Assembly: GCF_056712565.1 (NCBI RefSeq)
Contig: NZ_CM160072.1
Strand: one strand, 5' to 3'
Length of the DNA: 64,000 nt
Shown: one piece after another, positions 27,995 through 64,000 of the stretch
How positions within the stretch are numbered: the first letter of the stretch is position 1
Layout of the letters: each line of letters opens with the position of its first letter
Translations under genes and position numbers: made by a program
Notes under the pieces: generated by a model
What the model saw: only the letters and a program-made list of their open reading frames with translations
Databases searched by the model: none
Told to the model about the DNA's origin: nothing

Positions 27995-28009
27995 TCATTC
28001 CCACTCAAT
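27995..28009 (-). other. Displaced guaA 3' end (codons IEWE-stop) = prophage attachment core at junction
   Basis: TCATTCCCACTCAAT reverse-translates to ...I-E-W-E-stop then diverges into phage DNA; 9-bp inverted repeat CACTCAATT/AATTGAGTG at 28002-28038. Confidence 0.55.
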
Positions 28010-28119
28010 TATTTACGATAACCATAACCAATTGAGTGATAACATTTTTCCAAATCTCAATTTTTCCCGTACCGTTTTATATACCGTCACCGGAAATCAG
28101 TACCATGAAAAATGCCATG

Positions 28120-28602
28120 CTATCTGGTCAAAGTGTCGTACTGTTTTTCGCAGACTCTTCCGGCTTCGGCTGCCCGGTCAGCATACTCTGCCAGTTGTCT
28201 GTTTCTCTCGAGAGATTTGCTGAGCACGTCGGCAAGCAAAACTCCGGTGTCTGCGGCTGACGACCCAGCGCCGACAATGGCGTTATACTGCCTGAGCTGC
28301 TCACGGATGGCAAAGAGTTGTTGCTGCAACCGGCCAGCGCTAGCGGCAGCATCAAGAGCATCATTGCGCGCCTGGTCGATCCTCTGCTGAGCTTCACGTT
28401 CATTGGTCACTTTCTCCTGTTCGTAGTACTGACGAACTTTGTCTTCTTCGGCTTTGCGGTCTTCTTCCGCCTGAGCATACCCGGCATCGTACTGGCGACT
28501 GCCGTGTATATTCCAGGCAACCACTCCTGATATGACCAGAACAGCAAGCACTGCCACGATAAGCAACTGTTTCCAGTATGCTTTCACGAATGCCTTGATC
28601 AT
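28120..28602 (-). CDS. Rz-like i-spanin
   Basis: N-terminal TM anchor then charged coiled-coil; last gene of lysis cassette. Confidence 0.6.
   Translation of the reverse strand: MIKAFVKAYWKQLLIVAVLAVLVISGVVAWNIHGSRQYDAGYAQAEEDRKAEEDKVRQYYEQEKVTNEREAQQRIDQARNDALDAAASAGRLQQQLFAIREQLRQYNAIVGAGSSAADTGVLLADVLSKSLERNRQLAEYADRAAEAGRVCEKQYDTLTR
28128..28364 (-). CDS. Rz1-like o-spanin lipoprotein, embedded in Rz in the +1 frame
   Basis: MMLLMLPLALAGCS lipobox; fully nested within Rz. Confidence 0.5.
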   Translation of the reverse strand: MMLLMLPLALAGCSNNSLPSVSSSGSITPLSALGRQPQTPEFCLPTCSANLSRETDNWQSMLTGQPKPEESAKNSTTL

Positions 28603-28823
28603 ATACTTACCTTCGGCTGAAATCGGCGAACGTTAATTGGCTCACCATATGGCCATGACCAATTCAGCCAGGTAAATGTTTTCAGCTCGCACATCGCATC
28701 GAAAAATTCACCAGGATCGATGTCGGAATAGCTGCAAACTATTTCCAGACCACGTTCTGTTTCTTGCAAAGCAACTGTATCTGTTTCCCAGCGGGGAATG
28801 AGCAAAGAAAATAGTTTATTCAT
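28599..28823 (-). CDS. Hypothetical 74-aa protein, translationally coupled to endolysin
   Basis: ATG 28823 overlaps endolysin stop; RBS AGAAGG; no TM. Confidence 0.4.
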
Positions 28824-29446
28824 AAAAGCACCTTCTTGGCCGAAAGATACCGTACACGCCGGTCGTCGATACCGTTTCTGCCACCATTGATAATCAGAGT
28901 TACACGTGCAATATCGCCGGTATACTTCATGCATCCTTTGCTGGCGAAGAACCACGCCGCGCTACGAGCCGCATATTCGTCCTGCGCCAGCAGTTCAGGG
29001 CTCTCCAGCAGGTCAACCTTCAGACCGTTTCCGCAATCACGATAGTTATTCAAACCGGTAATCTGGATAAGTCCGCGCCCTCGGTAATTCCAGCCATCAC
29101 CAGGGGCATTGTTCCCCATGCGTTTGCTGTATACCAGATTTGCGATCGCGCGCTGGCGCTCAAGTGGCAATGGTGGTTCACCAGCACGGCGCCCCAGTGC
29201 ATTAGCCTGCCCCTGAGTGAGACGCCCAGCCCGAACGAAGTTAGCCAGTCCGCTGACACTGTAGTTGAAATTCTCCTGCAACCTGGTGAAGCCCCCAGAC
29301 TCATGCCCGACTTGAGCAATAAACATTGCCTGATCTTCTGCTTTGCTGATACCAAACTCTTTCATCGCAGAAGTTATATGCGAGAACCAGCGTGCGGCCA
29401 GTGCCTCGCTGATACCAGCAGCTCGCTGGAATTGTTTAATCTCCAT
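28820..29446 (-). CDS. Endolysin, glycoside hydrolase family 19-like
   Basis: [12 protein letters not shown]...[12 protein letters not shown] chitinase-class motifs; start ATG 29446 with RBS GAGGT; track extension to 29611 rejected. Confidence 0.75.
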
Positions 29447-29744
29447 GTTTAGACCTCGATACTTTAAAAATTTGAACGACGTTACCGCGCGTTTTAATAA
29501 CCGCAGCCAGCATGACAGCGTTGATAATGACCTCAGATAAATCCACAGCCATTGGCGTACGTAACCAGATTGCATAGGCGACTCGAACAGGAATACTGGC
29601 CGCAGCAACAATCAGGAAATAAGCAAGCCATCCTCCCCACCTTCGATGTTGAGAGCCGTTACGCCGGAATGTGACAACGCGAATTGCTATGCCAGTGCAA
29701 ATAACTGCATTGGTGATAAGCAAAAAAAACTCATGCGTTACCAT
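29436..29744 (-). CDS. Lysis-cassette membrane protein (holin or antiholin candidate)
   Basis: 102 aa, about 3 TM segments, overlaps endolysin start. Confidence 0.5.
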
Positions 29745-30135
29745 CGTCTTTTCTCCCCGGAATTAACTCGCGTGGATTATCGGAACGGTGATAGAGCCAT
29801 ATACCAATACGCACAGCGACAATTGCTGACACGAATGCGCCTGCAGAGAAAACAATCCCTTTTTCAAAAGAGTCCTGCGTGATGGTAGGGATCAGGCTGG
29901 CTATGCCGATAAGAATTGATGCTGCTGGTTTGTAAAAGAGAAGGCCACAAAGAAAGCTGAGCATCGAAAGGAGCACCCGGCGACGGATGGGGTACTCTAC
30001 TGCAGAGGTAACAAAAATTACCGCCCCAGCCAAAGCCCCTAAAGCAACCTCCGGAGGGACACCTGCAATAACCGCAGCAAGAGAACTAAAACTAAGCAAC
30101 TGATTTAATTGCTCACTTGTTACTTGAGCAGACAT
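29731..30135 (-). CDS. Holin-like membrane protein
   Basis: 134 aa, about 4 TM segments, charged C-terminus, first gene of lysis cassette. Confidence 0.5.
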   Translation of the reverse strand: MSAQVTSEQLNQLLSFSSLAAVIAGVPPEVALGALAGAVIFVTSAVEYPIRRRVLLSMLSFLCGLLFYKPAASILIGIASLIPTITQDSFEKGIVFSAGAFVSAIVAVRIGIWLYHRSDNPRELIPGRKDDGNA

Positions 30136-30416
30136 ACTTTCTCCTGTTTACTATCTATAAGCCAGTCAATTATTGATGACTAACTTCGCATAGTAAACCA
30201 TATATGAATCATTATTGTTCCATATCATATATCTCAATAAAAGTACTAATGATTTTACAGAACGAGCCAGCAGAGTGAGGGCAGTTGTACAGGAACCATA
30301 GACTTAATTTTGTATTTAATAATGCTATGGTGTAATAAACCTGAACATGTATTTAAAATACGTACTGATTCATGATAGAATTCAAAGATAACTTTTCACA
30401 AACTCCGTTTTTGATA

Positions 30417-30445
30417 CCCGCAAAATATTGCGGGCTTTTTTTTAA
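30417..30445 (+). terminator. Plus-strand rho-independent terminator abutting tailspike stop
   Basis: CCCGCAAAATATTGCGGG followed by CTTTTTTTTT. Confidence 0.4.
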
Positions 30446-33400
30446 CGTTCTTCCAGAGACTGAATCCGCTCTTTTATCTTATCCATTTCTCTGCGCTGCC
30501 ATGCTGCCTCGATATAGAATAAGAGATCAGGTCTGACCCCCCATCTAGATCCTGCTGGCGTTATTTCAACGCGCTCAATGATGTCTTCTATTACCATCAC
30601 TGGATTATCATCCTCATCAACAATGATGCTCCCGTCATTATCAGTCAGCGGCATTTCCCTTTGGCCAGTAATGACGTCATCATATACTGCGGGATAATCG
30701 TCATAGCAAAGAAAGGCATAGCGGCATGTTGTGCTTTCTTCTTCCATGAGTCCGTGAGAAATAAGAACATCACGAAGTTGCTGCGCGATTACACCATGAT
30801 GTATCCTCGCCCCTTCTTCCCCCTTTATAGCGACAGCGTTCAGCCATTTATAAGCGATATACCTGACGTCACCCCAGGCATCCAGCAATGCTTCGTCAGG
30901 AGAGACCGGCTCTGTCTTTAATGTTCCGTCACTGGTAACCACAGGATTGGAGCCAAGATAAACTGTCGAGAACCTGTTTCCCGGACCACCAAGAGCATTT
31001 ACATTATCAAGATAAGGTTTAACATCTCCGTTCTCAAAAAGATGTTCGAGTGCGTTATATACCGCGCGACGTGGAGTACTGCTTCCGGAACCATGCAACG
31101 TTATCATTGCACCATCTGCTGAAGACGTTGTTTCACCTCCGCTAACGATTAATCTCTGAGCGGTAACATCATCAGACGGTACTTTCTTCGCAATAATGGC
31201 GTAATTACCCTCAAGTTTGACTTCCGCGCGAACTTGTCCTGATGTACCTGCATGGACAGTCAGTGACTGGACGGCAACATCATCTGTGAAATCAACGGGT
31301 ACAGGAACCGTCCTCACGCCTGACGTCGACATAAAAGTAGGAAGCGTTCTGTTAGGAGTGGCTCCGTAGACAAAATCCCTTGAAACAAATTCTTCCTGTT
31401 TAATTTTCACCCTGAAACAATACAAATCAGCCGGGTGACCATCGTGAACATAAGGATATTTTCTGTTGTTATCCCCTATGCTCCATGGGTTTAGAAAGTC
31501 TTCCCCACCGAAAATGTAGTACAGCCAGTTGTCTTTGATACAAACTGAACCAACACCAACCGCAGAGTTAACTATTCCGCCCTGATAAATCTGATCAGTA
31601 ACATTAACCCACTCTACATTATCCAGACTCCACTCATTGACGTTAACTCTGGTCATAAATGTTCTTGGATAATTTCCTGCATAACGGTTATCAGGTTCTC
31701 CTCCTTCCCACTCACCAAATGCGCGCTCACTGCCAAAAATAATCAGCTCATCGCCAACTTTGGCAAAAGGAAGGTTTGAGTGATGAACATTATTTGGGAA
31801 GCGAAGAGAATTCCATGATGTACCTAAATCAGAGCTTCTGTGCAATGAACTACCGGGTTGAGTACTTAATGTCCCCCTGGTCGTCAGATACAGAATGCCA
31901 TCATAATATTTTACACATGGCTCAGATGCATTCGCCTCATATTCTGCAGGTATGCGTCTGCGAACAAAGCTACCAGGAGAACCGAAAGCATCAGAGAAAT
32001 AGAGTATCCCAAGCTCGCGTGGACCAATATCACCATTATGGTAGCCAACAGCAAAACTGTTATCGCTAATCGTCGCAAAACTGTGAATCTCAGTAACAGG
32101 AGTGCTTCCGTCAACAAAAGAAGGAATAGTTCCAAGACTGGTTTTTCTCCATGGTGACGAGTGAAATGATGTACCAAAACTCCAGTATCTACCCTCGTTA
32201 TTCTGATCCACATCCTGAGTATTTTGCGTCGTAACTGTAAAAGTATTTTTATCAATAACAGTAGTCACCGTCATATTCCCGGTAACACCTGTAACACCAG
32301 AGTTTGAGAAGTTGACAAAATCACCAGCAAATAATCCGTGATCAGTAATGCGAATATAAGCGACTTGCTGATTTGCTGCTTTCGTTATACCACCATAAAC
32401 GCGAAGGCTGCGACTCATTGGGCGATCCCACAACTCTGCAACCTGCAGTTTATTTCCTCTCACGGTCCGCGTCTCAATTACAGCAAAAAGGCGATTTCTG
32501 ACAACCCCCATACTCATGCAGTGATAGTTAACTGTGGGATAGTTTTCATGTAAATCTGTAAGCCATTCCGGCGTTGTCCAGGTCTTCCCGTCATCTCCTG
32601 AGCGAACCCATGCAACATGGAGGTTATTTACACCATGGCGGTCTCCAGCCATAAAAGGCGCATAGATGACATTGTCATATACAAACGTTTTATCCTGCGT
32701 CCAGGCGTTGTACCACGGTGTATCTGTAATTTTAAATAACTCTCCCTGGATAAAATCTTCAGAAGCATAAAAAAGAGGCTGGCCCGGTATTCTCTCAAAT
32801 AAAAAACGAGCATTTTTAAATCGACTGACATCCGGAAGAGTTGATACTTTAAAAGTAAGCCCTAATCCGTCAATTTTATAACCTGGAGATGAGGCTTCAA
32901 GGCACGCGCTTATTGCAGTGGAATCGTCATTTATACCATCACCAACAGCTCCAAAATCTTTGGGGCTAATAGCATCACGCATTTTATCCTGGAACGTTCG
33001 GTACACAGCCCCAGAACCATACTGAATAAACCAACCAAAACCACCAACAACCCCGGCGATTGCAGCATCGACATAATTACGCATTGAGCGATTATTTACA
33101 GCGTCCTGCTCAAATGATGGATCTGCAAGGTTAGAAATTTTGTTTTGCTTTGCATCGTAATATTTTGCAAGCAAAGATGGTTTCATCAATGCACGTCTGA
33201 ACCACCCAAAACATTGCTGGATCAGCATCGTCAGGTAGTCAAAGGCATCTTCATGCACTTCGGGGAAAAATTTTCCCTGATTGCGAAGGTCTGTCTCCTG
33301 CACTACATCAAGCACACGATCTATCGTAATTCGCCATCCAGTAGCAAGCGGAGACGGAAGAACCACAGAACCGCCACTATAAGTGCCCGCCCCAGTTACC

Positions 33401-33561
33401 GTATAACCGGTATCCAGGACCAATTCTGTTACGTTCCCGTTCAGGTCAGACACCTGAACAACCAGGTCTGATTTTCTGAAAATTCGAAAAGTATACGGAA
33501 ACGATGTCGTAACGCCGTTACCGGTGTATTCGTTGTGGTCAACTTCGGTTGAGACCGTCAT
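30442..33561 (-). CDS. Tailspike protein with Asp-box (BNR) beta-propeller-type central domain
   Basis: 1039 aa; conserved phage tail-fibre N-terminal domain; two SxDxGxTW motifs (SGDDGKTW, SSDLGTSW); RBS GGAG. Confidence 0.8.
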   Translation of the reverse strand: MTVSTEVDHNEYTGNGVTTSFPYTFRIFRKSDLVVQVSDLNGNVTELVLDTGYTVTGAGTYSGGSVVLPSPLATGWRITIDRVLDVVQETDLRNQGKFFPEVHEDAFDYLTMLIQQCFGWFRRALMKPSLLAKYYDAKQNKISNLADPSFEQDAVNNRSMRNYVDAAIAGVVGGFGWFIQYGSGAVYRTFQDKMRDAISPKDFGAVGDGINDDSTAISACLEASSPGYKIDGLGLTFKVSTLPDVSRFKNARFLFERIPGQPLFYASEDFIQGELFKITDTPWYNAWTQDKTFVYDNVIYAPFMAGDRHGVNNLHVAWVRSGDDGKTWTTPEWLTDLHENYPTVNYHCMSMGVVRNRLFAVIETRTVRGNKLQVAELWDRPMSRSLRVYGGITKAANQQVAYIRITDHGLFAGDFVNFSNSGVTGVTGNMTVTTVIDKNTFTVTTQNTQDVDQNNEGRYWSFGTSFHSSPWRKTSLGTIPSFVDGSTPVTEIHSFATISDNSFAVGYHNGDIGPRELGILYFSDAFGSPGSFVRRRIPAEYEANASEPCVKYYDGILYLTTRGTLSTQPGSSLHRSSDLGTSWNSLRFPNNVHHSNLPFAKVGDELIIFGSERAFGEWEGGEPDNRYAGNYPRTFMTRVNVNEWSLDNVEWVNVTDQIYQGGIVNSAVGVGSVCIKDNWLYYIFGGEDFLNPWSIGDNNRKYPYVHDGHPADLYCFRVKIKQEEFVSRDFVYGATPNRTLPTFMSTSGVRTVPVPVDFTDDVAVQSLTVHAGTSGQVRAEVKLEGNYAIIAKKVPSDDVTAQRLIVSGGETTSSADGAMITLHGSGSSTPRRAVYNALEHLFENGDVKPYLDNVNALGGPGNRFSTVYLGSNPVVTSDGTLKTEPVSPDEALLDAWGDVRYIAYKWLNAVAIKGEEGARIHHGVIAQQLRDVLISHGLMEEESTTCRYAFLCYDDYPAVYDDVITGQREMPLTDNDGSIIVDEDDNPVMVIEDIIERVEITPAGSRWGVRPDLLFYIEAAWQRREMDKIKERIQSLEER

Positions 33562-33665
33562 GTTAAATCTCCAGATAGTCGCAGCACCCGTTGCGCCGCA
33601 TATCTGGTTATTCTATTACCTGAAAAACCACATATGGATAAAAGGACTATAAATACCAATAGATA

Positions 33666-33680
33666 TTACCTTTCGGGTAA
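33666..33680. promoter_or_regulatory. Operator-like palindrome TTACC-N5-GGTAA
   Basis: TTACCTTTCGGGTAA; member of a family of 10 perfect sites in the prophage. Confidence 0.45.
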
Positions 33681-33717
33681 TTTGCAAAACGTGCTGGATA
33701 GCAAACAAATTATTTGT

Positions 33718-33737
33718 TACTGTATAAACATACAGTT
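33718..33737. promoter_or_regulatory. LexA (SOS) box
   Basis: TACTGTATAAACATACAGTT = CTGT-N8-ACAG with TA-rich spacer, 20 bp upstream of ATG 33757. Confidence 0.6.
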
Positions 33738-33756
33738 ATTGCATGGAGAAGATAAG

Positions 33757-34014
33757 ATGCAGCAGTATCACTATCCACTGGAAGACGGATTTACCGAAAG
33801 GATTCACACGCCGGGAGGCGTCAGATCACTGGTGGAGGGATCGCTCTTGATGAAATTACTCCGGGATCTCGATAAGGATGGATTTAATGTCGATGGCCCA
33901 CTTGCCGAACTGACTGCACTGATTAACTACGTCACCAGCTCACAGATGTCTATGCGGGATCTGCAAACACATCTCGACTATTGTGCCGAACAATTACGAA
34001 AACAAACCAGATAA
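33757..34014 (+). CDS. Small antirepressor-like protein (85 aa), paralog of the Ant C-terminal domain
   Basis: MQQYHYPLEDGF...; aligns with C-terminus of the BRO-N protein; RBS GGAGAAG; track start 33634 is an extension. Confidence 0.55.
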   Translation: MQQYHYPLEDGFTERIHTPGGVRSLVEGSLLMKLLRDLDKDGFNVDGPLAELTALINYVTSSQMSMRDLQTHLDYCAEQLRKQTR

Positions 34015-34017
34015 GGT

Positions 34018-34046
34018 TTGCAATTACCAAATGGAGTGCTTATATT
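34018..34046 (+). promoter_or_regulatory. Sigma70-like promoter for antirepressor gene
   Basis: TTGCAA, 17-bp spacer, TATATT; abuts operator 34046-34060. Confidence 0.45.
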
Positions 34047-34060
34047 TACCTTTGCGGTAA
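34046..34060. promoter_or_regulatory. Operator-like palindrome TTACC-N5-GGTAA
   Basis: TTACCTTTGCGGTAA overlapping -10/+1 of the antirepressor promoter. Confidence 0.45.
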
Positions 34061-34326
34061 ATTTACATCGCACTCCTCTTGTGCCATAGTAATCGGGCAC
34101 TGGCAAAATCCAGTGCCGGGATTGGCGTCCCGAGTTACTACAGAGGCACATATGCCGCATAAGCGGTTTTTTTATGTGTAAAGCGCACCTATTCTATGGT
34201 GGGCTGTGTGGGGGCACCGAAAGGTGCGCCGGGTCCTTTGTAGCCGGTTACGCCAACCCTGCACAGTTCACCACCAACCGATTGGCGTCGGTAGTGGTGA
34301 TTAACCTAACTACAAAGGTGATCGCC

Positions 34327-35019
34327 ATGAATACCAAACCTTCCATCTTTTCCTTTGAGTCATCCTGCCAGATCCGTATGTTCATGATTGACGGAGAACC
34401 TTGGTTTGTCACCAAAGATGTGTGCAATGCTTTGAATATTGATGTTACACAAGCGAGAAAACTTGATAAAAAAGGCTGGAACAAAAAGGGGCTGTATTCA
34501 ATACAGACCCCTGGTGGAATACAAGAACTATCCATCGTTTCAGAATCAGGTCTCTACATCCTTATTCTGCGTTGCAAAGAGGCAATGACTGAGGGAACGA
34601 GAGCATTCAGATTTCTTGAATGGGTTACAGGCGAAGTACTTCCTCAGATCCGCCGCACCGGAAGCTACATTAAAAACTCGCTCCCGCAGGAAGAACGCAT
34701 AAAGATGGTTGCCGACCAGGTAGCCAACGCCACGGCGTCAGCAGTAATGCAGGCGATGAAGATAGAGAACAAAACCTACAGCGCCCCACTGAAGCCCGGC
34801 TACCGCAGCCTGATTCATTCGCCGTCTGGTGTTCTCGGCCTGACGGAGAACTCACTGCTGATGAATCTGCTGAACCAGTTACAGGAAGACGGGCACGACG
34901 TATCGGGCGCGGCGGCGGAGCTGACCACCATGTTCTGCTACATCGTCGGTGTGAGCAAGTGCCTGCGTGATATCCAGACGCACGCGGAGTACATCAACGA
35001 CAAGGCTGGGTTCTTCTGA
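34327..35019 (+). CDS. Antirepressor, BRO-N N-terminal domain plus Ant-type C-terminal domain
   Basis: GEPWFVTKDVCNALNI...GLYILILRCKEA...EWVTGEVLPQIRRTG BRO-N signature; ATG 34327 with RBS AAGGTG. Confidence 0.75.
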   Translation: MNTKPSIFSFESSCQIRMFMIDGEPWFVTKDVCNALNIDVTQARKLDKKGWNKKGLYSIQTPGGIQELSIVSESGLYILILRCKEAMTEGTRAFRFLEWVTGEVLPQIRRTGSYIKNSLPQEERIKMVADQVANATASAVMQAMKIENKTYSAPLKPGYRSLIHSPSGVLGLTENSLLMNLLNQLQEDGHDVSGAAAELTTMFCYIVGVSKCLRDIQTHAEYINDKAGFF

Positions 35020-35027
35020 CGGGCGGC

Positions 35028-35046
35028 GGCACATGGATGTGCCTTT
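35028..35046 (+). terminator. Candidate terminator after antirepressor gene
   Basis: GGCACAT-gg-ATGTGCC hairpin then TTT. Confidence 0.35.
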
Positions 35047-35792: not shown

Positions 35793-35796
35793 TAGA

Positions 35797-56816: not shown

Positions 56817-57394
56817 CAATTAACCTCCTGCGGCGGTTCCGGTAGAGGCATCCAGTACAAGGCGTTCCCTAACCACGATAAAGTGCCGTCGCTCAACTCC
56901 ACGTATTCCCCTTGTACCTGTCCTGCCATATACTCGCCGTGCTTTGAATAAATTAAAATCCAATCATCTTGAGCGGGCATTCGCTCACTACAGCTTATCC
57001 AACCATCCGGAGTTACCGGATAGTTGCCCGACAGCTCGTTCAACTTGTAAGTTTGGCTTACAGGTTCGGCTTCCAGTTCTGCAATGCGCTTCTCTGCAGC
57101 TTCCAGCTCAACGCGCAGCTTCCCTACCGTTAGCGCAATTTCCTCGTTCTCCTGGTCGCGGGATTTGATGTATTGCTGGTTCCTTTCCCGTTCATCCAGT
57201 AGTGCCAAAGCAATCTTTGGATTAAAGGCAGCAATAAATTCAGCGTTGTTTTTCAGAACGTGTTGCGCAATGGCCTGACTACTTAGTCGGACCTCATAAC
57301 CACGTGCGCCACGGTGTGGTTTATATGAGTCCCAGTCTCCCCACGTTGCTTTTTCTGCCTTAGCACGCAGTGCCTGATAATCAATCTTGCTCAC
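56816..57394 (-). CDS. Ead/Ea22-like protein
   Basis: GTG 57394 with RBS AAAGGAGG; coiled-coil N-terminus; track start 57475 rejected. Confidence 0.45.
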   Translation of the reverse strand: MSKIDYQALRAKAEKATWGDWDSYKPHRGARGYEVRLSSQAIAQHVLKNNAEFIAAFNPKIALALLDERERNQQYIKSRDQENEEIALTVGKLRVELEAAEKRIAELEAEPVSQTYKLNELSGNYPVTPDGWISCSERMPAQDDWILIYSKHGEYMAGQVQGEYVELSDGTLSWLGNALYWMPLPEPPQEVN

Positions 57395-57683
57395 TGGTTG
57401 CCTCCTTTGCTGGGCTTTCGAATGTATCAAGCTCAAACAACTTAACCACGTCATCAAACAGGACATAATCGCCATCAGAATCTTCAGTCATGTCAGCGCC
57501 ACAATCCTGACCGCACGAGTCACAACCATCCATATCAAGCTCGTATCGCTTCAGGTTTACGATATTTGATAAATTCAGCGCCAGTACAGCCAGGTCATAA
57601 ACCTCTTCGGCAGTGACATCGCTGTTCAGTCCCATTTCATGGCGATATATGATTTTTCCTACTCGTTGTTTTGTGATTGTCAT
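57381..57683 (-). CDS. Hypothetical acidic protein (100 aa)
   Basis: ATG 57683 overlapping upstream stop. Confidence 0.4.
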   Translation of the reverse strand: MTITKQRVGKIIYRHEMGLNSDVTAEEVYDLAVLALNLSNIVNLKRYELDMDGCDSCGQDCGADMTEDSDGDYVLFDDVVKLFELDTFESPAKEATSEQD

Positions 57684-58147
57684 TTTTGCTCACCTCCCTG
57701 TTCTTCCAGAAAAATACGCATAGCCTCAAGCATCTCTTCGGTGTCATACGGTGACAACTTGTCACGCAGGATGTGTTCAATGCTGTTAATGAACTTGCGG
57801 ATTGCTTTGCGTTCAATTTCAGCTAGGAAAGCATCGGTGGCTGGGGTGTCAACACGGATACTGTCGCGCAAGATGAAAAATGCATTGAGCATCCCAGTCT
57901 CCGGCACTTCATCCTGATACTTCTCATACGCATCAAGAGCCTTCATCATCTCAGGTCCGAATGGTTGAGGGTGCGCAGCCTTCAGCGCCGCATTCTCCGC
58001 TGCCAGCGCATTAGCACGCACCAGTTGCACTTCCAGTTGCGTTGCCAAACAGCGAACAAGCACGGATGGTGCGCCTGTCATGTCGTCAGCTAACGCATGC
58101 CCTGATGCCACTAAATCTTTGATCATACCTTCAGCCATACTTTCCAT
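57680..58147 (-). CDS. Hypothetical protein (155 aa)
   Basis: ATG 58147 with RBS GAGGGT. Confidence 0.4.
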   Translation of the reverse strand: MESMAEGMIKDLVASGHALADDMTGAPSVLVRCLATQLEVQLVRANALAAENAALKAAHPQPFGPEMMKALDAYEKYQDEVPETGMLNAFFILRDSIRVDTPATDAFLAEIERKAIRKFINSIEHILRDKLSPYDTEEMLEAMRIFLEEQGGEQK

Positions 58148-58208
58148 CTTTACCCTCGCTTATCCACATAACTTATTGATTACATTGATAACTAAAAAGA
58201 TCGTCGAT

Positions 58209-58553
58209 TCAGAACTCTTCGATGTTCCAGCCGCAACCTGCTTTCTTTGGTTTAACCGTTACCCCGATGATTCGGAACGGATACTGATCTGCGGCGACTT
58301 TGGTTTTCACCCTGGCGTCGTCGGTCCAGAAACCTTTCACTTCGTGCAGTTCCATCTCTCCGGTGGCGAGCATCACAGCGAAATCTGGCGTATAGAACGT
58401 GTTGTCAGCTAACCGCAGCTTGATACCCTCGAATCGATACCAGGCGATTTCCCCTGCACGTTTACGCAGCTCAAGGTGCTGGCAATACGCAGATTCTGTT
58501 TTGTTCATCTGGCCTGTTTTGAGTCGACCAAGAGCCTGTATCTGTTTTCTCAT
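58209..58553 (-). CDS. Small PD-(D/E)XK-like nuclease-fold protein
   Basis: YTPDF...HEVKGF motif. Confidence 0.45.
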   Translation of the reverse strand: MRKQIQALGRLKTGQMNKTESAYCQHLELRKRAGEIAWYRFEGIKLRLADNTFYTPDFAVMLATGEMELHEVKGFWTDDARVKTKVAADQYPFRIIGVTVKPKKAGCGWNIEEF

Positions 58554-58670: not shown

Positions 58671-59471
58671 TTACTTGATAAATCCTGCTGCCTTTCCTCG
58701 CCTGTATTCCTCCATCAGCCACTGCGCCGGTGTTATTCCCCCCAGGGTGGCGGCGTTAGGCATGCACCCGAAACTTCGCCCTGGTGGATGGTAAACGTCT
58801 CTCCCTGTGTCCGGAGGTGTACTCATGGGCTCTGGCTTTGCCTGTATGCTGATCACCGGATCGGGTATCTGCTGTCCGGAAGCCACCTTTTTCGCCCAAT
58901 CATCGAGCAACCTGCGCGCGTGTTTCTCAACCTCAATCTCGCTAAGCTGGCGCTGATACATTGCACGGCGGGTATCACATACGACCCAGTACATAACCGG
59001 ATGCCGCCACGGGAATCTTTCGGGACCACCAGGATATAAACTTTTTTCCTTGCTGTACCGGTGAAACTCCGCCATCACATCGTCAATGGTGACGCCAAGA
59101 ACCATCTTGCTGTCTTTACACCACTTGATGAATTGCCCTGGCGACGGCCAGAACGGAGACTCACTGGCGCGAGCGTGGCGCATACCAGCAGAAACCTGTT
59201 CACGGGTTCGGATCCCACCTTCGGCAAACGCAGCAATCCACTGCTGTTTTGCAGCAACTTCCTGCTCTGGCGTCTTCAGGTTGGTTACCACTGCCGCCGG
59301 AAACAGTTGTTTCAGCTGTTTGAAAAGGGCATCAACAAGTCTCTCTGCTGACATGTTCACCACATTGTCATTGTTGACGTACTGATGCTCATAACCTGAC
59401 ATGCGAGAAAGGGCTTCTCCGTCACGGTTTTGTATCGCGGTAAAAACGTTGTTCACAAGAAATCCTCCCAT
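58671..59471 (-). CDS. Replication protein P-like (helicase loader)
   Basis: WIAAFAEGGIRTREQVSAGMRHARASESPFWPSPGQFIKWCKD resembles recalled lambda P segment. Confidence 0.7.
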   Translation of the reverse strand: MGGFLVNNVFTAIQNRDGEALSRMSGYEHQYVNNDNVVNMSAERLVDALFKQLKQLFPAAVVTNLKTPEQEVAAKQQWIAAFAEGGIRTREQVSAGMRHARASESPFWPSPGQFIKWCKDSKMVLGVTIDDVMAEFHRYSKEKSLYPGGPERFPWRHPVMYWVVCDTRRAMYQRQLSEIEVEKHARRLLDDWAKKVASGQQIPDPVISIQAKPEPMSTPPDTGRDVYHPPGRSFGCMPNAATLGGITPAQWLMEEYRRGKAAGFIK

Positions 59472-60268
59472 GCTTCAGGGCTGTTCCAGTGCGGAACGTT
59501 GTTATCAGGTAATGTTGATTGCTTCTGTCTGCTAATCTGCAGCCGCCTTGCCAGCTTCTGCTCCCACTGTGCCTGATGGTATGCCTTACCCTCAGCCATC
59601 CAGTAAATTCTGAACTCTGCAAGTTCCTGTGCCGTTGGCAGACTGTCCAGGTAGATCCCCTGCAATGAGCTTTTCCGAAGAAAGTCATCTGATGGTTGCC
59701 ATTGTTCATGCATGACAAATTTGCCTAATTGCCCTGGCCCACCAGGAGGAACAAAGTTATTCATCACGGCGTTGTTTGCGCCGGGGTCATTAGGCACAGA
59801 ATCCCCGCTTTTTGTCCTGCTCTCCCTCTCTTGGTTAAATGACTGGTTATATGACTGGTTCTGGATCCCGTTTTTGGGATCATTCAACATCCCGTTTTTG
59901 GGATCATTCAACATCCCGTTTTTGGGTATATTCCCGTTTTCGGTAACATTACCGTTTTCGGGTTCATTACCCCCTTCCCGGTTGCCTTTAATGTTCCCGT
60001 TTTTGGTTATATTAAGAGAGAAAACCCGCACTCTTTTCGTCGCTCCCTTTCTCTCTCCGGTATCTGAAATAAGCCCCATTTTCATGAGCGATATAAGCCC
60101 GGCCTGCACGGTTTTTTTATTCAGGCAAGTGTCTTTAACGAGGCGTTCTATGCTGGGGTAGCAGAGGTTATATTCATCGGCTCTGTCAGCCATCGAGAGC
60201 AGTATGAGCTTTAATGACGAGCTACCTGGATCTGTCTCCCAGGCCCAATCTGTTGCATGTCTGCTCAT
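59453..60268 (-). CDS. Replication initiator O-like protein (origin-binding)
   Basis: HTH N-terminus; internal repeated PKNG peptides encoded by iterons; RBS GGAG. Confidence 0.65.
   Translation of the reverse strand: MSRHATDWAWETDPGSSSLKLILLSMADRADEYNLCYPSIERLVKDTCLNKKTVQAGLISLMKMGLISDTGERKGATKRVRVFSLNITKNGNIKGNREGGNEPENGNVTENGNIPKNGMLNDPKNGMLNDPKNGIQNQSYNQSFNQERESRTKSGDSVPNDPGANNAVMNNFVPPGGPGQLGKFVMHEQWQPSDDFLRKSSLQGIYLDSLPTAQELAEFRIYWMAEGKAYHQAQWEQKLARRLQISRQKQSTLPDNNVPHWNSPEAWEDFL
59862..60010. repeat. Origin-like iterons inside the O-like gene
   Basis: Two exact 24-bp tandem copies CCCGTTTTTGGGATCATTCAACAT (59866, 59890) plus about 4 CCCGTTTT(T)GG variants. Confidence 0.6.
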
Positions 60269-60634: not shown

Positions 60635-60865
60635 TCATGAGTAGAAGAAGTATGCCAGTTCTGCTTTTGAGCGCAGCCATTGTCTTGTTTTACAGGCTTT
60701 AAAAAGCCCATTCATCAATACTTTACCTGGCATTTTTCGCTTACCTGTTAAGTGAGTCTGGATATAGTGACTCGTCGTTCCGGCTTCCTGTGCGAAGGCT
60801 TCACGCTCATCCGGAGTAAGTGCAAGCCAGTGCTTTTTGAAATCGAAATGTCCGTTATCGCTCAT
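60635..60865 (-). CDS. Cro-like HTH regulator (76 aa)
   Basis: Divergent from cI-like gene across the operator cluster; HTH LTPDEREAFAQEAGTTSHYIQ. Confidence 0.55.
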   Translation of the reverse strand: MSDNGHFDFKKHWLALTPDEREAFAQEAGTTSHYIQTHLTGKRKMPGKVLMNGLFKACKTRQWLRSKAELAYFFYS

Positions 60866-60901
60866 AGCTATTGCCTGATATTTATTTCAGATAATAAATA
60901 T

Positions 60902-60964
60902 TCACCCATAAGGTAACAAAAATCAAGGATAGTTACCTATGAGGTGCATTTACCTGTTGGGTAA
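60902..60964. promoter_or_regulatory. OR-like tripartite operator region between cro-like and cI-like genes
   Basis: TCACCCATAAGGTAA (60902), TTACCTATGAGGTGC (60933), TTACCTGTTGGGTAA (60950). Confidence 0.5.
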
Positions 60965-61019
60965 TATTGCTTTAAATTGAATCATCTACTGATTCATATA
61001 TGAGGCGATTTTCCAGAAA

Positions 61020-61604
61020 ATGAAAAGTATCCAGGACGTCCGCAGGCAAAATCTCAACGACTTGATCGACCGTGAATTCAATGGTGTTCAGACGCGGATG
61101 GCAGAAAAACTTGGAACTCAGGCAAATCTGGTAAACCGCTGGGCTCTTGGCAAGAAGGTTATCGGCGACCAGGTTGCGCGAAAAATTGAAGCTGCCGCCA
61201 ATAAACCCCGTAACTGGCTTGATATCGATCGCTCGCTTTCTCAGGAAGGTTTTCAGCCTGTCGGCCCAAGCGACATTGGTCAGCTGGCGGCTCACAACCT
61301 GGAACGCTGGATGAGCGAAAGCCGCGACCTTTCAACACAGGGAAAACTTCACCGCGCATCCGGCGTCGCCCAGGTGACAATCAGCCGCCTGTTAAACAAT
61401 GAGGTCAGCGTTTCCATTTCCACCCTGGAGAATGTTGCATCCGCATTCGGGCGTCACGGCTATGAATTACTGATTCACCCGCACGACCCTGCGACTATCA
61501 ACTATGACCGCTCGCGCTACGCATTGTTACCCGAAACAGAGAAGGCAAAGATCGAAAGTTACATTGAATTTGTCATCAGCCAGAACGAAAAAAACAAACA
61601 ATAA
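61020..61604 (+). CDS. CI-like repressor, HTH type, no recognisable LexA-type autocleavage domain
   Basis: 194 aa, two HTH-like segments, no Ala-Gly/Ser-Lys S24 motifs; followed by terminator. Confidence 0.65.
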   Translation: MKSIQDVRRQNLNDLIDREFNGVQTRMAEKLGTQANLVNRWALGKKVIGDQVARKIEAAANKPRNWLDIDRSLSQEGFQPVGPSDIGQLAAHNLERWMSESRDLSTQGKLHRASGVAQVTISRLLNNEVSVSISTLENVASAFGRHGYELLIHPHDPATINYDRSRYALLPETEKAKIESYIEFVISQNEKNKQ

Positions 61605-61757: not shown

Positions 61758-61910
61758 ATGCAGTGGAAAATCATCAACGGTTGGTACTGCGTTACTGCAT
61801 GCGGATTCATGAGCTGGAAGTTCCGCACCTTACAGGAAGGCATTAAGTGGGCTTTCGTCAGCAAAGAAGCTCGCGATGTGGCCAACGATAACGAGATATG
61901 GGAGGGCTGA
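61758..61910 (+). CDS. Small hypothetical protein (50 aa), first gene of leftward-type early operon
   Basis: ATG 61758 with RBS GAGGT; absent from ORF track (below 60 aa). Confidence 0.35.
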   Translation: MQWKIINGWYCVTACGFMSWKFRTLQEGIKWAFVSKEARDVANDNEIWEG

Positions 61911-61912
61911 TA

Positions 61913-62212
61913 ATGAACGTTAATCAGCAGAAAAATCTTCAAAAAATCATGCAGGCATTCGACAAGGACTACCACCTGTCAGAACAGCTATATGACCGAC
62001 AAGTTGAACTGATTGAGAGCATCCGACTTCATCAACTGTCATCAACTTTCGACGTTGTAACAGGCAAAGGCGTTCGTCAGGAAGTACTGGAGGCTGCTAA
62101 AGACAGCCCTGAGTTCGAAGAACTGATGGATGCCTATCGGCGAGAGGCAATGGCAATTATCGCCCGCTGGGATCTGGCGGATCAGCTTGATGGACAGAAG
62201 GACGCGGCATGA
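61913..62212 (+). CDS. Hypothetical protein (99 aa)
   Basis: ATG 61913 with RBS GGAGGG; coupled to downstream exonuclease gene. Confidence 0.45.
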   Translation: MNVNQQKNLQKIMQAFDKDYHLSEQLYDRQVELIESIRLHQLSSTFDVVTGKGVRQEVLEAAKDSPEFEELMDAYRREAMAIIARWDLADQLDGQKDAA

Positions 62213-63030
62213 AACCGGGAATTTATTTCGGCATCAGCAACGAAGACTACCACGCAGGTGACGGCGTGAGTAAGTCGCAACTGGACATGGTTGCCAAGAA
62301 TCCGGCGCTTCTTAAATGGGTTCAGGCAGCACCAGAAGACGAAGAGAAAAAGTCTGCATTGGATATGGGAACCGCATTGCACTGCCTGCTTCTGGAACCT
62401 GGAGAATTCGACAAACGCTTCATCGTGTCACCGAAATTCGATCGTCGGACAAAACAAGGTAAAGCTGACGAAGAAGCATTTCTTCGTGATGTGGCGGATA
62501 TGGGTATTACGGTACTTGATGTCGAGCAGTGGCGAAAACTTGAGCTCATGCGTGATAGCGCAATGGCTCATCCGGCGGCACGCTGGATGTTGGAAGCACC
62601 TGGTTACTGCGAAGCATCAATGTACTGGAACGATGAAGAGACGGGTGAGTTGTGCCGAATTCGTCCAGACAAATGGCTGAACGAGCACAACGTGATCGTC
62701 GACGTGAAAAAGGTTGCAGATATGGACCGTTTTGCACGCCACATCGAGGAATTCCGCTACCACGTGCAGGACGCAATGTACCGCGAAGGCGCAACGAGGG
62801 TTACTGGTCAACCGCATGGTTTTTTCTTTCTTGCCGTGAGCGAAAGCATTGATTGTGGTCGGTATCCGGTACGCGTGTTCGAGTTGGATGCGCCGGATGT
62901 CGATGCCGGGCACGCTCTGTTCCGCCGGGATCTGAATACCTATCACGAATGCCGCATCAACGATGAGTGGGGCGGAGTGGAAATTATTAAACGCCCTGAC
63001 TGGGCACGTAAACAGGATATGTACGTATGA
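62209..63030 (+). CDS. PD-(D/E)XK exonuclease (RecE-C-terminal/Exo VIII-like)
   Basis: 273 aa; RPD...IVDVKK nuclease motif; coupled to annealase gene. Confidence 0.6.
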   Translation: MKPGIYFGISNEDYHAGDGVSKSQLDMVAKNPALLKWVQAAPEDEEKKSALDMGTALHCLLLEPGEFDKRFIVSPKFDRRTKQGKADEEAFLRDVADMGITVLDVEQWRKLELMRDSAMAHPAARWMLEAPGYCEASMYWNDEETGELCRIRPDKWLNEHNVIVDVKKVADMDRFARHIEEFRYHVQDAMYREGATRVTGQPHGFFFLAVSESIDCGRYPVRVFELDAPDVDAGHALFRRDLNTYHECRINDEWGGVEIIKRPDWARKQDMYV

Positions 63031-63908
63031 GCAATGATATCGCAATCACATCACAACCAGGCGCAACTGTAGGTACTGCTGCGGCAATCTTCAGCCCGGA
63101 GGGCATGAATCAACTGGTGCGTTTCGCGGAGTTGATGTCACAAAGCAAAGCGACTGTACCGAAACATCTTGAAGGCAAACCTGCCGATTGTCTGGCGGTG
63201 ACCATGCAGGCGGCACAGTGGGGAATGAACCCTTTCGCCGTGGCGCAGAAAACGCATGTGGTAAACGGAACGTTAGGCTACGAAGCACAGTTGGTAAACG
63301 CGGTCGTATCCTCTTCCAGCCTGCTGGCGACACGCCTGAATTATCGCTGGAGCGGTGACTGGTCGAATGTTAACGGCAAAACAGATAAATCACCGAATCT
63401 GACGGTAACTGTGTCAGCAGTTCTTAAAGGAGAAGCAGAACCCCGTGAGCTTACCATCAGTATGGCGCAAGCCGGAGTGCGTAACTCTCCATTGTGGGAA
63501 CAGGATCCGCGCCAGCAGCTTGCCTATCTTTGCACGAAACGATGGGCTCGCCTGCACGCTCCTGATGTGCTTCTCGGTGTTTACACCCCTGACGAATTAC
63601 AGGAAACGGCACCGCGCGTTGAGCGAGACATTACTCCGCAAACAACTACTGCTGCGGGAATGAACAGTCTGATCAACGCTAAACCAGTGAAAAAGCCTGA
63701 TGAGCAAACTCGTAAAGCGGATAGCCGTGATCCAGAAGAAATGCTGATGGCCTTTACCAGCGCAGCGATGAATTACAGCACTGTCTCCGAACTGGATAAG
63801 GCTTACAAATACATTGCACAAAAACTTTCAGATGATGACGAACTGCTGGCAAAAGCCACCGACGTTTACAGCGTTCGTCGGGAAGAATTAAACGAAACAT
63901 CTATGTAA
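63027..63908 (+). CDS. Red-beta/Bet-family single-strand annealing protein
   Basis: QWGMNPF and ERDITPQ segments resemble recalled lambda Bet (GLNPW, ERDITPV). Confidence 0.6.
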   Translation: MSNDIAITSQPGATVGTAAAIFSPEGMNQLVRFAELMSQSKATVPKHLEGKPADCLAVTMQAAQWGMNPFAVAQKTHVVNGTLGYEAQLVNAVVSSSSLLATRLNYRWSGDWSNVNGKTDKSPNLTVTVSAVLKGEAEPRELTISMAQAGVRNSPLWEQDPRQQLAYLCTKRWARLHAPDVLLGVYTPDELQETAPRVERDITPQTTTAAGMNSLINAKPVKKPDEQTRKADSRDPEEMLMAFTSAAMNYSTVSELDKAYKYIAQKLSDDDELLAKATDVYSVRREELNETSM

Positions 63909-63957
63909 CCACCACCGCGGCGCCACACGCGCCGCACTGCAACCAAGAGAGGTATTT

Positions 63958-64000
63958 ATGAAAGGTGCATTAGGTAAGAAGGAACTCCTGGCGGTGGTGC
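63958..64000 (+). CDS. Start of next early gene (truncated by window end)
   Basis: ATG 63958 (MKGALGKKELLAVV) with RBS AGAGAGG. Confidence 0.3.
   Translation, partial: MKGALGKKELLAVV

Follow-up and report, generated by a model that had tools for sequence, protein, structure and literature searches.

Insertion of a prophage at guaA

The 64,000-nt stretch of DNA analysed here (the window) passes from chromosomal yfgI into phage DNA, and the locus raises the question of what kind of phage has inserted there, by which site, and whether it is still active. Blastn-type comparisons and PHROG scans identified all of 28010 to 64000 as phage DNA, and the prophage extends past 64000, the window edge falling 92 nt beyond recT. 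PHROG assignments were obtained for nearly every ORF, and the gene order is syntenic with that in the annotated records of phiV10 (NC_007804) and epsilon15 (NC_004775), the type members of Uetakevirus, and of vB_EcoP_ZX5 (MW722083.1; hereafter ZX5). Positions 40000-64000 share 97-98% DNA identity over 70-79% with PAS61, phiv142-3, ZX5 and TL-2011b, and 97.6% with phiV10 (53% covered); the structural genes are 77% identical at the DNA level to those of epsilon15. Judged by gene order and the 97-98% DNA identity, the prophage is a Uetakevirus. We hold with high confidence that the window from 27993 to 64000, and the DNA beyond it, represents a phiV10/epsilon15-type temperate podovirus with a P4-type tyrosine integrase, inserted through a 17-bp core at the 3' end of guaA, for which a mechanism is proposed below. 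The original prediction of a temperate tailspike podovirus prophage of epsilon15/phiV10 architecture at this site is supported by DNA identity, synteny and the att flanks, and its gene order (terminase, portal, capsid, large ejection proteins, tailspike, holins, GH19 endolysin, spanins) was right, on the minus strand.

To the left of the att core lie yfgI (27362-27901, plus strand) and its hairpin terminator (27940-27973). The string TCATTCCCACTCAAT at 27995-28009, whose reverse complement (ATT GAG TGG GAA TGA) encodes I E W E and a stop, also ends guaA at the empty K-12 site, where the yfgI-side flank and terminator are identical; in strain MS20653 it adjoins guaA where a related prophage has its far end, and in GPEC1337 it recurs where the phages of a tandem prophage meet. 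The four-way identity runs 2 nt beyond the 15-nt string (AA at 27993-27994), giving a 17-nt core, attgagtgggaatgatt, which is the attP of phiV10, epsilon15 and ZX5 (PMC9782041). The junction between the yfgI side and the lysis-gene side (27993-28009) thus carries AATCATTCCCACTCAAT, the reverse complement of the 17-nt ATTGAGTGGGAATGATT published as the attP/attB core of these three phages, and integration of ZX5 at guaA was verified by PCR/Sanger sequencing (PMC9782041). The copy of the guaA C-terminal codons predicted next to the yfgI/guaA terminator was correctly placed but is 17 rather than 15 nt long; the accompanying statement that epsilon15 integrates at guaA agrees with the published work. 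The phage DNA that separates the core from the spanin genes (28010-28119), one attP arm, matches ZX5/phiV10 DNA exactly downstream of Rz and contains a partial, inverted copy of the core at 28025-28038.

A 15-mer is short when taken alone and a single junction is visible in the window, and one might suppose that the guaA-like string is a chance match and that the phage DNA came by illegitimate recombination, an assembly join or similar. This supposition, to which we give practically no credence, is refuted by the flanks, which are those of the empty K-12 site before the core and of phage attP after it; moreover, the same junction is present in many independent genomes, and the core is an experimentally verified attP/attB (PMC9782041). 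In related E. coli genomes, the ~3 kb after recT hold an AlpA/Xis-like gene, PerC, an MT-A70 methylase, DUF1382, the (tyrosine) integrase and the second core copy, with 192 nt between the integrase and an intact guaA, and by analogy the integrase and second core copy of this prophage, and guaA with them, would be found ~3 kb beyond the window. With the phage core copy providing its four final codons and stop codon, guaA would stay intact.

Lysis cassette and tailspike

The lysis cassette, on the minus strand, begins next to the phage arm with a 160-aa Rz-like i-spanin (28120-28602; DUF2514; PHROG 312, E 7e-59; p30/p30a in the phiV10 annotation), in which an Rz1 o-spanin with a lipobox LAGC in its translation is embedded (28128-28403). 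It further comprises a 208-aa GH19 (chitinase-like) endolysin (28820-29446; PHROG 181, E 3e-90; glycoside hydrolase family 19 in RefSeq relatives) and two holin-family membrane proteins of 102 and 134 aa (29436-29744 and 29731-30135; PHROG 217 and 198 for the pair). Lysis would proceed by the two holins, the GH19 endolysin and the Rz/Rz1 spanins. Between endolysin and Rz lies a 74-aa ORF with no assigned function (28599-28823, minus strand; PHROG 2241), which falls in a gap of the blastn map, gave no tblastn match and is missing from ZX5, phiV10 and epsilon15, and which is also found in GPEC1337.

The 1039-aa tailspike (30442-33561, minus strand) consists of an N-terminal particle-binding domain, a K1 endosialidase beta-propeller and a C-terminal intramolecular chaperone domain. 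The particle-binding domain (~aa 1-190) is of the phiV10/epsilon15 type, the N-terminal 165 aa being 68-72% identical to those of phiV10 and epsilon15, and residues 193-1039 share 95% identity with the CUS-3 endosialidase and 62% with K1F EndoNF. ZX5 ORF7 is 99.9% identical to the tailspike at the amino acid level. On these alignments, the tailspike is chimeric, a particle-binding N-terminus of the phiV10 type being joined to an endosialidase of the CUS-3 type: it shares the catalytic beta-propeller and the C-terminal chaperone domain with the CUS-3, K1F and K1E endosialidases, but its N-terminal adaptor is of the phiV10/epsilon15 rather than the P22 or T7 type. The tailspikes of phiV10 and epsilon15 are, in contrast, O-antigen-specific, and O-antigen-modifying genes (oac; O-polymerase and inhibitor) adjoin them; no receptor-modifying gene was recognised in the prophage and no neuO-like capsule O-acetyltransferase in the window, which does not include the kps locus.

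The likeness to CUS-3, which extends to 99.4% DNA identity over 2.4 kb (30471-32863), and the O/P-type replication genes common to many lambdoid and Stx phages could be taken to indicate that the prophage is not of the epsilon15 type but lambdoid/P22-like, of the type of CUS-3, which is the classical prophage with an endosialidase in K1 E. coli. We consider this very improbable. The module map refutes it, in that CUS-3 matches the tailspike segment only, whereas terminase, portal, capsid, tail, internal, lysis, repressor and att modules are all of the phiV10/epsilon15 type. In addition, PHROG scans of the prophage returned no N- or Q-like antiterminator, and the Pfam matches of its repressor are all HTH domains, with no S24 self-cleavage domain among them.

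Virion genes

Two local peculiarities are seen among the virion genes of this Uetakevirus prophage: the gp10 capsid-staple gene is absent, and the ejection module (36652-43521) has a DNA match in none of 50,697 phage records. The small and large terminase subunits (55026-55700 and 53554-55029; PHROG 51 and 2/5902) and the head genes (47663-52390) are on the minus strand, the latter, assigned by PHROG and the annotation of relatives, including gp3-like (52184-52390), portal (50490-52169), protease (49499-50200), major capsid protein (48498-49490), Bbp16-type cement protein (48009-48446), gp5-like and gp9-like genes. A tRNA-Arg(UCU) (52817-52893; ARAGORN, Rfam) and a 123-aa Sf6 gp66-like ORF (53092-53463; PHROG 322; 'Gp49 family' in RefSeq) lie on the plus strand, opposite to the late genes. 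The internal virion and tail block (43521-47606, minus strand), 98% identical in DNA to phiV10 and ZX5, encodes gp14-like and gp13-like internal virion proteins (43521-44066 and 44066-44530) and gp12-like and gp11-like tail proteins (44530-47001 and 47001-47606; PHROG 418, 308, 376 and 394 for the gp14- to gp11-like set).

The gp10-less junction is at 47607-47613; the gene measures 324 nt in phiV10, ZX5 and MS20653, and its loss could in principle impair the capsid. The same 61-nt junction was found in 67 E. coli genomes, whose sources are humans, poultry, pigs, dogs, a dolphin and wastewater, and in phage EC.W1-9 (PP445227.1), isolated from sewage water in South Korea and propagated. In EC.W1-9 the identical junction lies between gp9-like and gp11-like genes amid the same head and tail genes, but the large ejection genes are another set (576, 2748 and 3390 nt) and the tail enzyme is different, being annotated as 'eliminase'. 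The three large internal/ejection proteins of the prophage, of 850, 565 and 873 aa (36652-39204, 39201-40898 and 40900-43521, minus strand; PHROG 684, 3003 and 1044 for the module), the last with an SLT transglycosylase domain, occupy the positions of epsilon15 gp17, gp16 and gp15. The module is divergent: compared with phiV10, the proteins show 23% identity, no match, or 67% over the first 235 aa only, and their nearest isolated phages are Stenotrophomonas BUCT708 (39%) and a Pseudomonas Ab31-like phage (31%). Three accessory ORFs (35160-36649) adjoin the module, of 210 aa (35160-35792, plus strand; PHROG 1349), 77 aa (35819-36052, plus strand; membrane-associated family, PHROG 3117/14503) and 186 aa (36089-36649, minus strand; signal-peptide-like N-terminus, PHROG 11983), and none has an NCBIfam or PADLOC match.

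The absence of gp10, an ejection module unlike any isolated phage's and a right end beyond the window are features that a defective (cryptic) remnant might display, fixed in the chromosome and yielding no infectious particles owing to the loss of gp10, to a mismatched, imported ejection module or to damage at the integrase end. Such a remnant appears unlikely given that EC.W1-9, an isolated and propagated phage, shares the gp10-less junction with E. coli genomes of such varied origin. The ejection module, for its part, is present in 61-63 of 5426 E. coli genomes, where it is 99% conserved, and its distribution is independent of that of the gp10 deletion (of the 60 accessions listed, only 17 are shared), which argues for ongoing recombination among active phages. 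Furthermore, GPEC1337 carries the same prophage type in tandem, and in the visible part all core ORFs are full length, with no frameshifted or truncated core genes seen relative to phiV10 or ZX5. The prophage is apparently intact, its visible part stopping at the window end.

Early genes and control of lysogeny

The early/middle genes (55697-58553, minus strand; PHROG and annotation of relatives) include ASCH, DUF4752-like and Ea22-like genes, an epsilon15 gp49/N15 gp46-like regulator (55927-56268) and a DUF1064 gene (58209-58553). The replication module (PHROG 109 and 1032) consists of a lambda-P-like helicase loader (58671-59471, minus strand) and an O-like/DnaT-like initiator (59453-60268, minus strand); replication would start, with the help of the loader, at six iterons (YCCGTTTTYGG cores) located within the initiator gene at 59865-60014. 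A recombination operon (61898-63908, plus strand; PHROG 856, 412 and 561) encodes a gp36-like protein (61898-62212), a RecE-like exonuclease VIII (62209-63030) and RecT (63027-63908). The early region had been described as lambdoid, with cI, O with iterons, P and exo/bet. PHROG and the repeat search bore out O and P, but the recombinases are a RecE-like PD-(D/E)XK exonuclease and RecT (PHROG) rather than lambda Red alpha/beta, and the place of cI is taken by a two-HTH repressor of the SPC32H type without S24 (Pfam), paired with a small antirepressor. An O/P-type replication module joined to virion genes of the epsilon15 type is nothing out of the ordinary, being the standard arrangement of phiV10.

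The immunity region (60635-61604; PHROG 35 and 8) comprises a Cro-like gene (60635-60865, minus strand), three operator-like palindromes (60903-60963) and the two-HTH repressor Rep (61020-61604, plus strand), which is homologous over its full length to the SPC32H repressor (PDB 5D50 chain A, E 4e-42). The motif TACCTnnnAGGTA occurs 31 times against 12.9 +/- 4.0 expected, and the 'repressor' binding features annotated for epsilon15 in RefSeq are scattered in a matching way; because of both, we propose that in lysogeny the non-cleavable Rep would bind about a dozen TACCTnnnAGGTA-like palindromes scattered across the phage genome. The 85-aa small antirepressor Ant (33757-34014, plus strand; PHROG 450) is a homologue of SPC32H Ant (PDB 5D50 chain E, E 5e-45) and of epsilon15 gp19. 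A predicted LexA box, TACTGTATAAACATACAGTT (33718-33737, plus strand), overlaps its promoter region and is found at the same place in epsilon15, phiV10, ZX5 and GPEC1337, local DNA identity to epsilon15 being only ~74%. Homology to both proteins of PDB 5D50 and the genus-wide LexA box suggest induction by the SPC32H scheme (Kim & Ryu 2013, J Virol, as cited in PMC7380047), in which DNA damage would remove LexA from the box preceding ant, and Ant would then inactivate Rep. As far as sequence tells, the likeness to SPC32H covers Rep, Ant (with conservative differences only) and the LexA box ahead of ant; unlike SPC32H, the prophage adds a larger second antirepressor with an Ant-like C-terminal domain and predicted RNA control.

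This second antirepressor, Bro-Ant (34327-35019, plus strand; PHROG 130 and 450), has a Bro-N N-terminus and a C-terminal domain 45% identical to small Ant (blastp). Its leader contains an isrK-like RNA (34097-34173, plus strand) and a C4 antisense RNA (34192-34278, plus strand), with Rfam scores of 74.2 and 79.5 bits, both above the gathering scores; the pair is also present in ZX5 and phiV10. In the immI system of P1 and P7, c4 antisense RNA controls ant. As in P1/P7 immI and Gifsy-1 isrK-anrP, a C4-family RNA lies directly upstream of the antirepressor gene, its predicted loop (34235-34243) is complementary to the ribosome-binding region of Bro-Ant (34310-34318), with which it could pair, and decoy copies of the C4 target sites lie within the upstream isrK-like RNA. 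Unlike those systems, the prophage belongs to a podovirus whose Rep/Cro immunity region is separate, and an icd-like ORF was not identified. Bro-Ant, behind a repressor-site-bearing promoter and the P1-immI-like RNA pair, may form a second layer of control. Its ZX5 counterpart, ORF4 (81% identity), favoured the lytic cycle when overexpressed (PMC9782041).

Relation to known phages

Among the closest known phages is ZX5, with the same 17-nt core, guaA site and isrK/C4 plus Bro-Ant arrangement, a 99.9% identical tailspike, 96-99% DNA identity across the lysis, tailspike, head, tail and immunity blocks, and near-identical Rep (99.5%), Cro-like protein (100%), RecT (100%) and small Ant (98%). ZX5 differs in carrying phiV10-type ejection proteins and the gp10 staple gene, in lacking the 74-aa lysis ORF and the 210-aa and 186-aa accessory ORFs, and in having different alleles of the O-like initiator and several early genes. 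With both phiV10 and epsilon15 the prophage shares gene order, att core, integrase site, the Rep/small-Ant pair with its LexA box, scattered repressor sites, GH19 endolysin and Rz/Rz1. With phiV10 it also shares the O-like initiator (97% at the amino acid level), P (99.6%), tRNA-Arg and isrK/C4; epsilon15 has neither a lambda-P homologue nor Bro-Ant/C4.

The prophage belongs, as an ordinary member, to a well-described group of temperate E. coli phages with short tails, and it occupies the insertion site published for them; the phage kind, the guaA site and, in ZX5, the K1 tailspike were already known. With its chimeric tailspike, 95-99.9% identical to characterised proteins, the phage would be expected to adsorb to the K1 capsule and degrade its polysialic acid.

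Insertion at the 3' end of guaA

The temperate tailspike prophage predicted at the 3' end of guaA was placed there by comparing its junction with three E. coli loci: the empty K-12 site, a related prophage in strain MS20653 and a tandem prophage in strain GPEC1337. As originally read, phage DNA starts after a 15-nt copy of the last guaA codons, TCATTCCCACTCAAT at 27995-28009, the reverse complement of which encodes I-E-W-E-stop. The K-12 site reads ...AGGGTCAAATCATTCCCACTCAATGGTAGCTGG..., guaA terminating there, and the window is the same through the end of AGGGTCAAATCATTCCCACTCAATGGTAGCTGG and phage sequence thereafter. The MS20653 prophage finishes in ...GCTGTTAATCATTCCCACTCAAT, fused to guaA, and the attP form is visible in GPEC1337 at the phage-to-phage junction where the tandem copies meet. 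Common to all four forms are 17 nt, AATCATTCCCACTCAAT (27993-28009), so that the shared core extends slightly beyond the predicted copy. This core is the reverse complement of attgagtgggaatgatt, which has been described both as the attP core of phiV10, epsilon15 and Escherichia phage vB_EcoP_ZX5 (hereafter ZX5) and as the attB at the guaA 3' end (PMC9782041); its listing for epsilon15 agrees with the original statement that this phage itself integrates at guaA. The attB, attL and attR products of ZX5 were confirmed by PCR and Sanger sequencing in the same study (PMC9782041), and insertion at guaA is likewise on record for TL-2011b, a relative of phiV10. Recombination of the Uetakevirus attP core, ATTGAGTGGGAATGATT, with the guaA 3' end is thus supported here by the attB/attR/attP comparison, one of the two junctions lying within the window. 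The flanking yfgI gene (27362-27901) and the hairpin terminator beside the junction (27940-27973) are native, the latter as predicted. A P4-type tyrosine integrase beside attP is expected in Uetakevirus, and in close relatives the integrase gene lies 192 nt from guaA.

We note that a phage hairpin terminator (AACCCTCTGT-loop-ACAGAGGGTT) adjoins the guaA-side core copy at positions 22815-22845 of the MS20653 locus, and that its stem is identical to that of the native yfgI/guaA terminator. Given this phage-borne terminator with a native stem, the phage seems to replace both the final codons and the terminator of guaA. The GPEC1337 locus (NZ_CM142779.1, 1-45400) reads tailspike-lysis-att-integrase-...-tailspike-lysis-att-yfgI and contains a natural attP-like junction; this tandem may be a genuine double lysogen or an artefact of assembly.

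Relatedness and gene order

By megablast, the segment 40000-64000 is 97-98% identical over 70-79% of the query to PAS61, phiv142-3, HEMP4, ZX5 and TL-2011b, and 97.6% identical to phiV10 with 53% covered; the structural genes are 77% identical to those of epsilon15. ZX5 is the best match for 27900-40000, and a block map places the lysis and tailspike blocks at 96-99% identity to this phage. The exception to this high nucleotide identity with Uetakevirus is an ejection module of about 7 kb. The top matches among complete E. coli genomes are 97-99% identical and mosaic. A CUS-3/P22-like identity was also considered and rejected, the module map being against it.

PHROG assignments, set against the gene tables of phiV10, epsilon15 and ZX5 and the block map, revealed the Uetakevirus order terS-terL-portal-protease-capsid-tail-internal proteins-tailspike-lysis-att-int, the int part falling outside the window, and bear out the predicted epsilon15-like podovirus architecture. 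On the minus strand, genes for a Cro-like protein, a gp40-like protein, an O-like initiator and a P-like loader are followed by DUF1064, Ea22-like and further small early genes and, ahead of the terminase genes terS and terL, by a regulator resembling epsilon15 gp49 and N15 gp46. Between terminase and portal, a tRNA-Arg(UCU) and a 123-aa ORF (52817-53463, plus strand) are transcribed in the direction opposite to the late operon. The minus strand continues with gp3-like, portal, gp5-like, protease, major capsid, Bbp16-like cement and gp9-like genes, gp11- and gp12-like tail genes, gp13- and gp14-like internal protein genes, and then the genes for the three large ejection proteins and for a 186-aa protein that looks secreted. 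A plus-strand island then precedes the tailspike (77-aa ORF, 210-aa ORF, the antirepressor Bro-Ant, C4 RNA, isrK RNA and the small antirepressor, small Ant), after which the minus strand carries the tailspike, two holins, a GH19 endolysin, a 74-aa ORF, Rz and the att core, with Rz1 embedded in Rz on the same strand (lipobox LAGC). At the right end, the repressor, two small ORFs, a RecE-like exonuclease and RecT are encoded on the plus strand, where the window stops. Relatives continue past RecT with AlpA/Xis-like, PerC, MT-A70 methylase, DUF1382 and integrase genes, the core and guaA, and the full prophage should therefore span about 39 kb.

Accessory genes include the 74-aa ORF between endolysin and Rz (28599-28823, minus strand; PHROG 2241), which is absent from ZX5, phiV10 and epsilon15 and present in GPEC1337, and the 210-aa (PHROG 1349) and 77-aa membrane-associated (PHROG 3117/14503) ORFs at 35160-36052 (plus strand), whose place is taken by different small genes in phiV10 and epsilon15. 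The accessory ORFs (186, 210, 77, 74 and 123 aa, and several early ORFs) all lacked an NCBIfam or PADLOC match and give no grounds for proposing a defence system or a receptor-modifying enzyme; nor was any gene for modification of the O antigen or capsule, such as phiV10 oac, recognised among the prophage ORFs.

A chimeric tailspike of predicted K1 specificity

The 1039-aa tailspike is 99.9% identical to ZX5 ORF7 over its full length. Its first 165 residues share 68-72% identity with the tailspike N-termini of phiV10 and epsilon15, and over residues 193-1039 the identity is 95% with the CUS-3 endosialidase (siaK1) and 62% with K1F EndoNF. The protein is accordingly predicted to combine the catalytic beta-propeller and the C-terminal intramolecular chaperone domain of K1 endosialidases, and related RefSeq entries carry the name 'endosialidase catalytic beta-propeller domain-containing protein'. 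Although genuine, the chimera is not new: its three-domain structure and K1 polysialic-acid target have been described for ZX5 (PMC9782041). For annotation, the prophage identifies its host as probably a K1 strain lysogenic for a ZX5-like phage.

Early region and control of induction

The early region had been predicted to be lambdoid (cI/cro, O with iterons, P, exo/bet), which holds for its replication genes. The initiator (59453-60268) matches both O-like and DnaT-like replication initiator families (PHROG 1032/391), contains six YCCGTTTTYGG-centred repeats (59865-60014), three of which are spaced by exactly 24 nt, and is followed by a loader of the lambda-P family (PHROG 109); an O gene with an internal iteron origin and a P helicase loader are thus present. 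The cI and exo/bet assignments did not stand. The 194-aa repressor, Rep (61020-61604, plus strand), has two helix-turn-helix regions and no Peptidase_S24 domain (Pfam), and hence differs from repressors of the cI type, in which an S24 domain serves autocleavage; the recombination genes belong to the exonuclease VIII (RecE)-like and RecT families (PHROG), functional analogues of Red exo/bet. Nor did any ORF scanned against PHROG, very small ORFs not exhaustively, match an N or Q antiterminator family through which early and late genes would be controlled. Annotation stands to gain from these corrections, the apparent cI and exo/bet being an SPC32H-type Rep and RecE/RecT.

Rep aligns end to end with the repressor of Salmonella phage SPC32H (PDB 5D50 chain A, E 4e-42), and the 85-aa product of an ORF beside the tailspike gene (33757-34014), the small Ant, with the antirepressor in the same structure (chain E, E 5e-45). 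The prophage thus encodes the pair typical of SPC32H, a non-cleavable two-domain helix-turn-helix repressor and a small Ant. A near-consensus predicted LexA box, TACTGTATAAACATACAGTT (33718-33737), lies 20 nt 5' of the small ant ATG and would overlap its promoter as the LexA operator does in SPC32H. A box also occupies this position in epsilon15, phiV10, ZX5 and GPEC1337, although the DNA around it is only about 74% identical to epsilon15. According to Kim and Ryu in 2013, the SPC32H repressor is reportedly inactivated by a LexA-controlled antirepressor, not cleaved, a mechanism with which the Rep, small Ant and LexA-box set of the prophage agrees. The Kim and Ryu study appears among the references of PMC7380047. 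There are two other CTGTN8ACAG matches, at 48468 and at 53009, whose poor flanks and G+C-rich centres make them unlikely LexA sites. The latter palindrome, CTGTAAACCAGTACAG (53009-53024), lies 5' of the 123-aa ORF, bears the bare LexA-box pattern and is conserved in relatives.

The palindrome TACCTnnnAGGTA, which is presumably the repressor operator, occurs 31 times in the window with up to two mismatches, against 12.9 +/- 4.0 in shuffles. About a dozen best copies are spread across the whole prophage, late region included: three in the Rep-Cro interval (60903, 60934, 60951), one past Cro (60566), two between Rep and the recombination operon (61663, 61725), and others before DUF1064 (58558, 58620), before the gp3-like gene and portal (52482) and in the antirepressor island (33667, 34047, 35087). 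The epsilon15 RefSeq record has annotated repressor-binding sites at equivalent places.

A second antirepressor, Bro-Ant (34327-35019, plus strand), is a Bro-N protein whose C-terminal 74 residues are 45% identical to the small Ant. Its gene is preceded by an isrK-like RNA (34097-34173; Rfam, 74 bits) and a C4 antisense RNA (RF01695, 34192-34278; 79.5 bits against a gathering score of 45), the latter separated from the Bro-Ant ATG at 34327 by only 48 nt. The pair is present in ZX5 and phiV10 and absent from epsilon15. A C4 loop, CCTTTGTAG (34235-34243), is the perfect 9-nt complement of CTACAAAGG (34310-34318), which overlaps the Bro-Ant Shine-Dalgarno region, and the isrK-like RNA carries near-copies, or decoys, of the C4 target (CTACAGAGG) and likewise of another element, TTGGCGT, which occurs again in the leader. 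The immI locus of P1 is laid out as a1/b1 - c4 - a2/b2, and the isrK/C4/ant leader matches this layout, here inside a podovirus; judging from base complementarity, C4 may likewise act at the translation start region of the downstream ant. A promoter-like site (34017-34046) is directly followed by a repressor-type palindrome. Bro-Ant is 81% identical to ZX5 ORF4, overexpression of which shifted ZX5 toward the lytic cycle (PMC9782041). The two antirepressors, small Ant under LexA and Bro-Ant under Rep and C4, may make up a switch with two stages, in which a trigger leads on to self-amplifying commitment.

In relatives, part of the region equivalent to 34097-34345, which holds isrK and C4, bears protein-type labels: 'ash family protein' in ZX5 and a misc_feature 'similar to hypothetical protein SF0880' in phiV10.

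A divergent ejection module and the loss of gp10

The ejection module (36089-43100) encodes the three large ejection proteins and the 186-aa signal-peptide protein at a G+C content of 54-58%, versus about 50% elsewhere. Searches of 50,697 phage records by megablast and blastn returned no DNA match to it beyond fragments covering 1-2% of the query. The 873-aa SLT protein shares 67% identity with its phiV10 counterpart over the first 235 residues only, the 850-aa protein 23%, and the 565-aa protein has no match in phiV10, its closest isolated phages being Stenotrophomonas BUCT708 (39% aa identity) and Pseudomonas Ab31-like phages (31%). The ejection proteins are all assignable to existing PHROG families, and 61-63 of the 5426 complete E. 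coli genomes carry the module in a 95-99.9% conserved form.

The prophage also departs from phiV10 and epsilon15 in the clean absence of the gp10 capsid staple gene (phiV10 p13, epsilon15 gp10), which measures 324 nt in phiV10, ZX5 and MS20653; here, 7 nt (47607-47613) connect the region upstream of gp10 to the gp11-like ATG. Such a loss might mark a dead prophage, a reading that we rejected: the exact junction is shared by EC.W1-9, an isolated phage from sewage water, and loss of gp10 thus does not mean a dead phage. An identical junction in 67 of 5426 complete E. coli genomes (433 genomes have gp10), together with EC.W1-9, further indicates that gp10 is not universal in Uetakevirus. Nor did the loss of gp10 prove linked to the variant ejection module: of the 60 accessions listed for each, only 17 are common to both.

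Biological significance

The original prediction was essentially correct in its finding and, with the corrections made to the early region, right in its interpretation. The prophage is a mosaic member of a phage group that is already published, as are its guaA site, endosialidase tailspike and antirepressor switch, so that its value as a discovery is small; its value for annotation remains. It may be a working Uetakevirus that combines the loss of gp10 with an ejection set whose isolated relatives, podoviruses of Stenotrophomonas and Pseudomonas, reach at most 39% amino acid identity. We put forward this reading, and the related one of a two-stage induction switch, tentatively, as possible but somewhat short of probable. 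The divergent ejection module and the gp10-less capsid set circulate in about 1% of complete E. coli genomes, and these variants are possibly of use to structural virologists studying epsilon15-type particles and to designers of K1-targeting phages. Were the combination indeed functional, the genome-delivery apparatus and a capsid-stabilising protein would count, in virions of the epsilon15 type, as modules that can be swapped freely or dispensed with.
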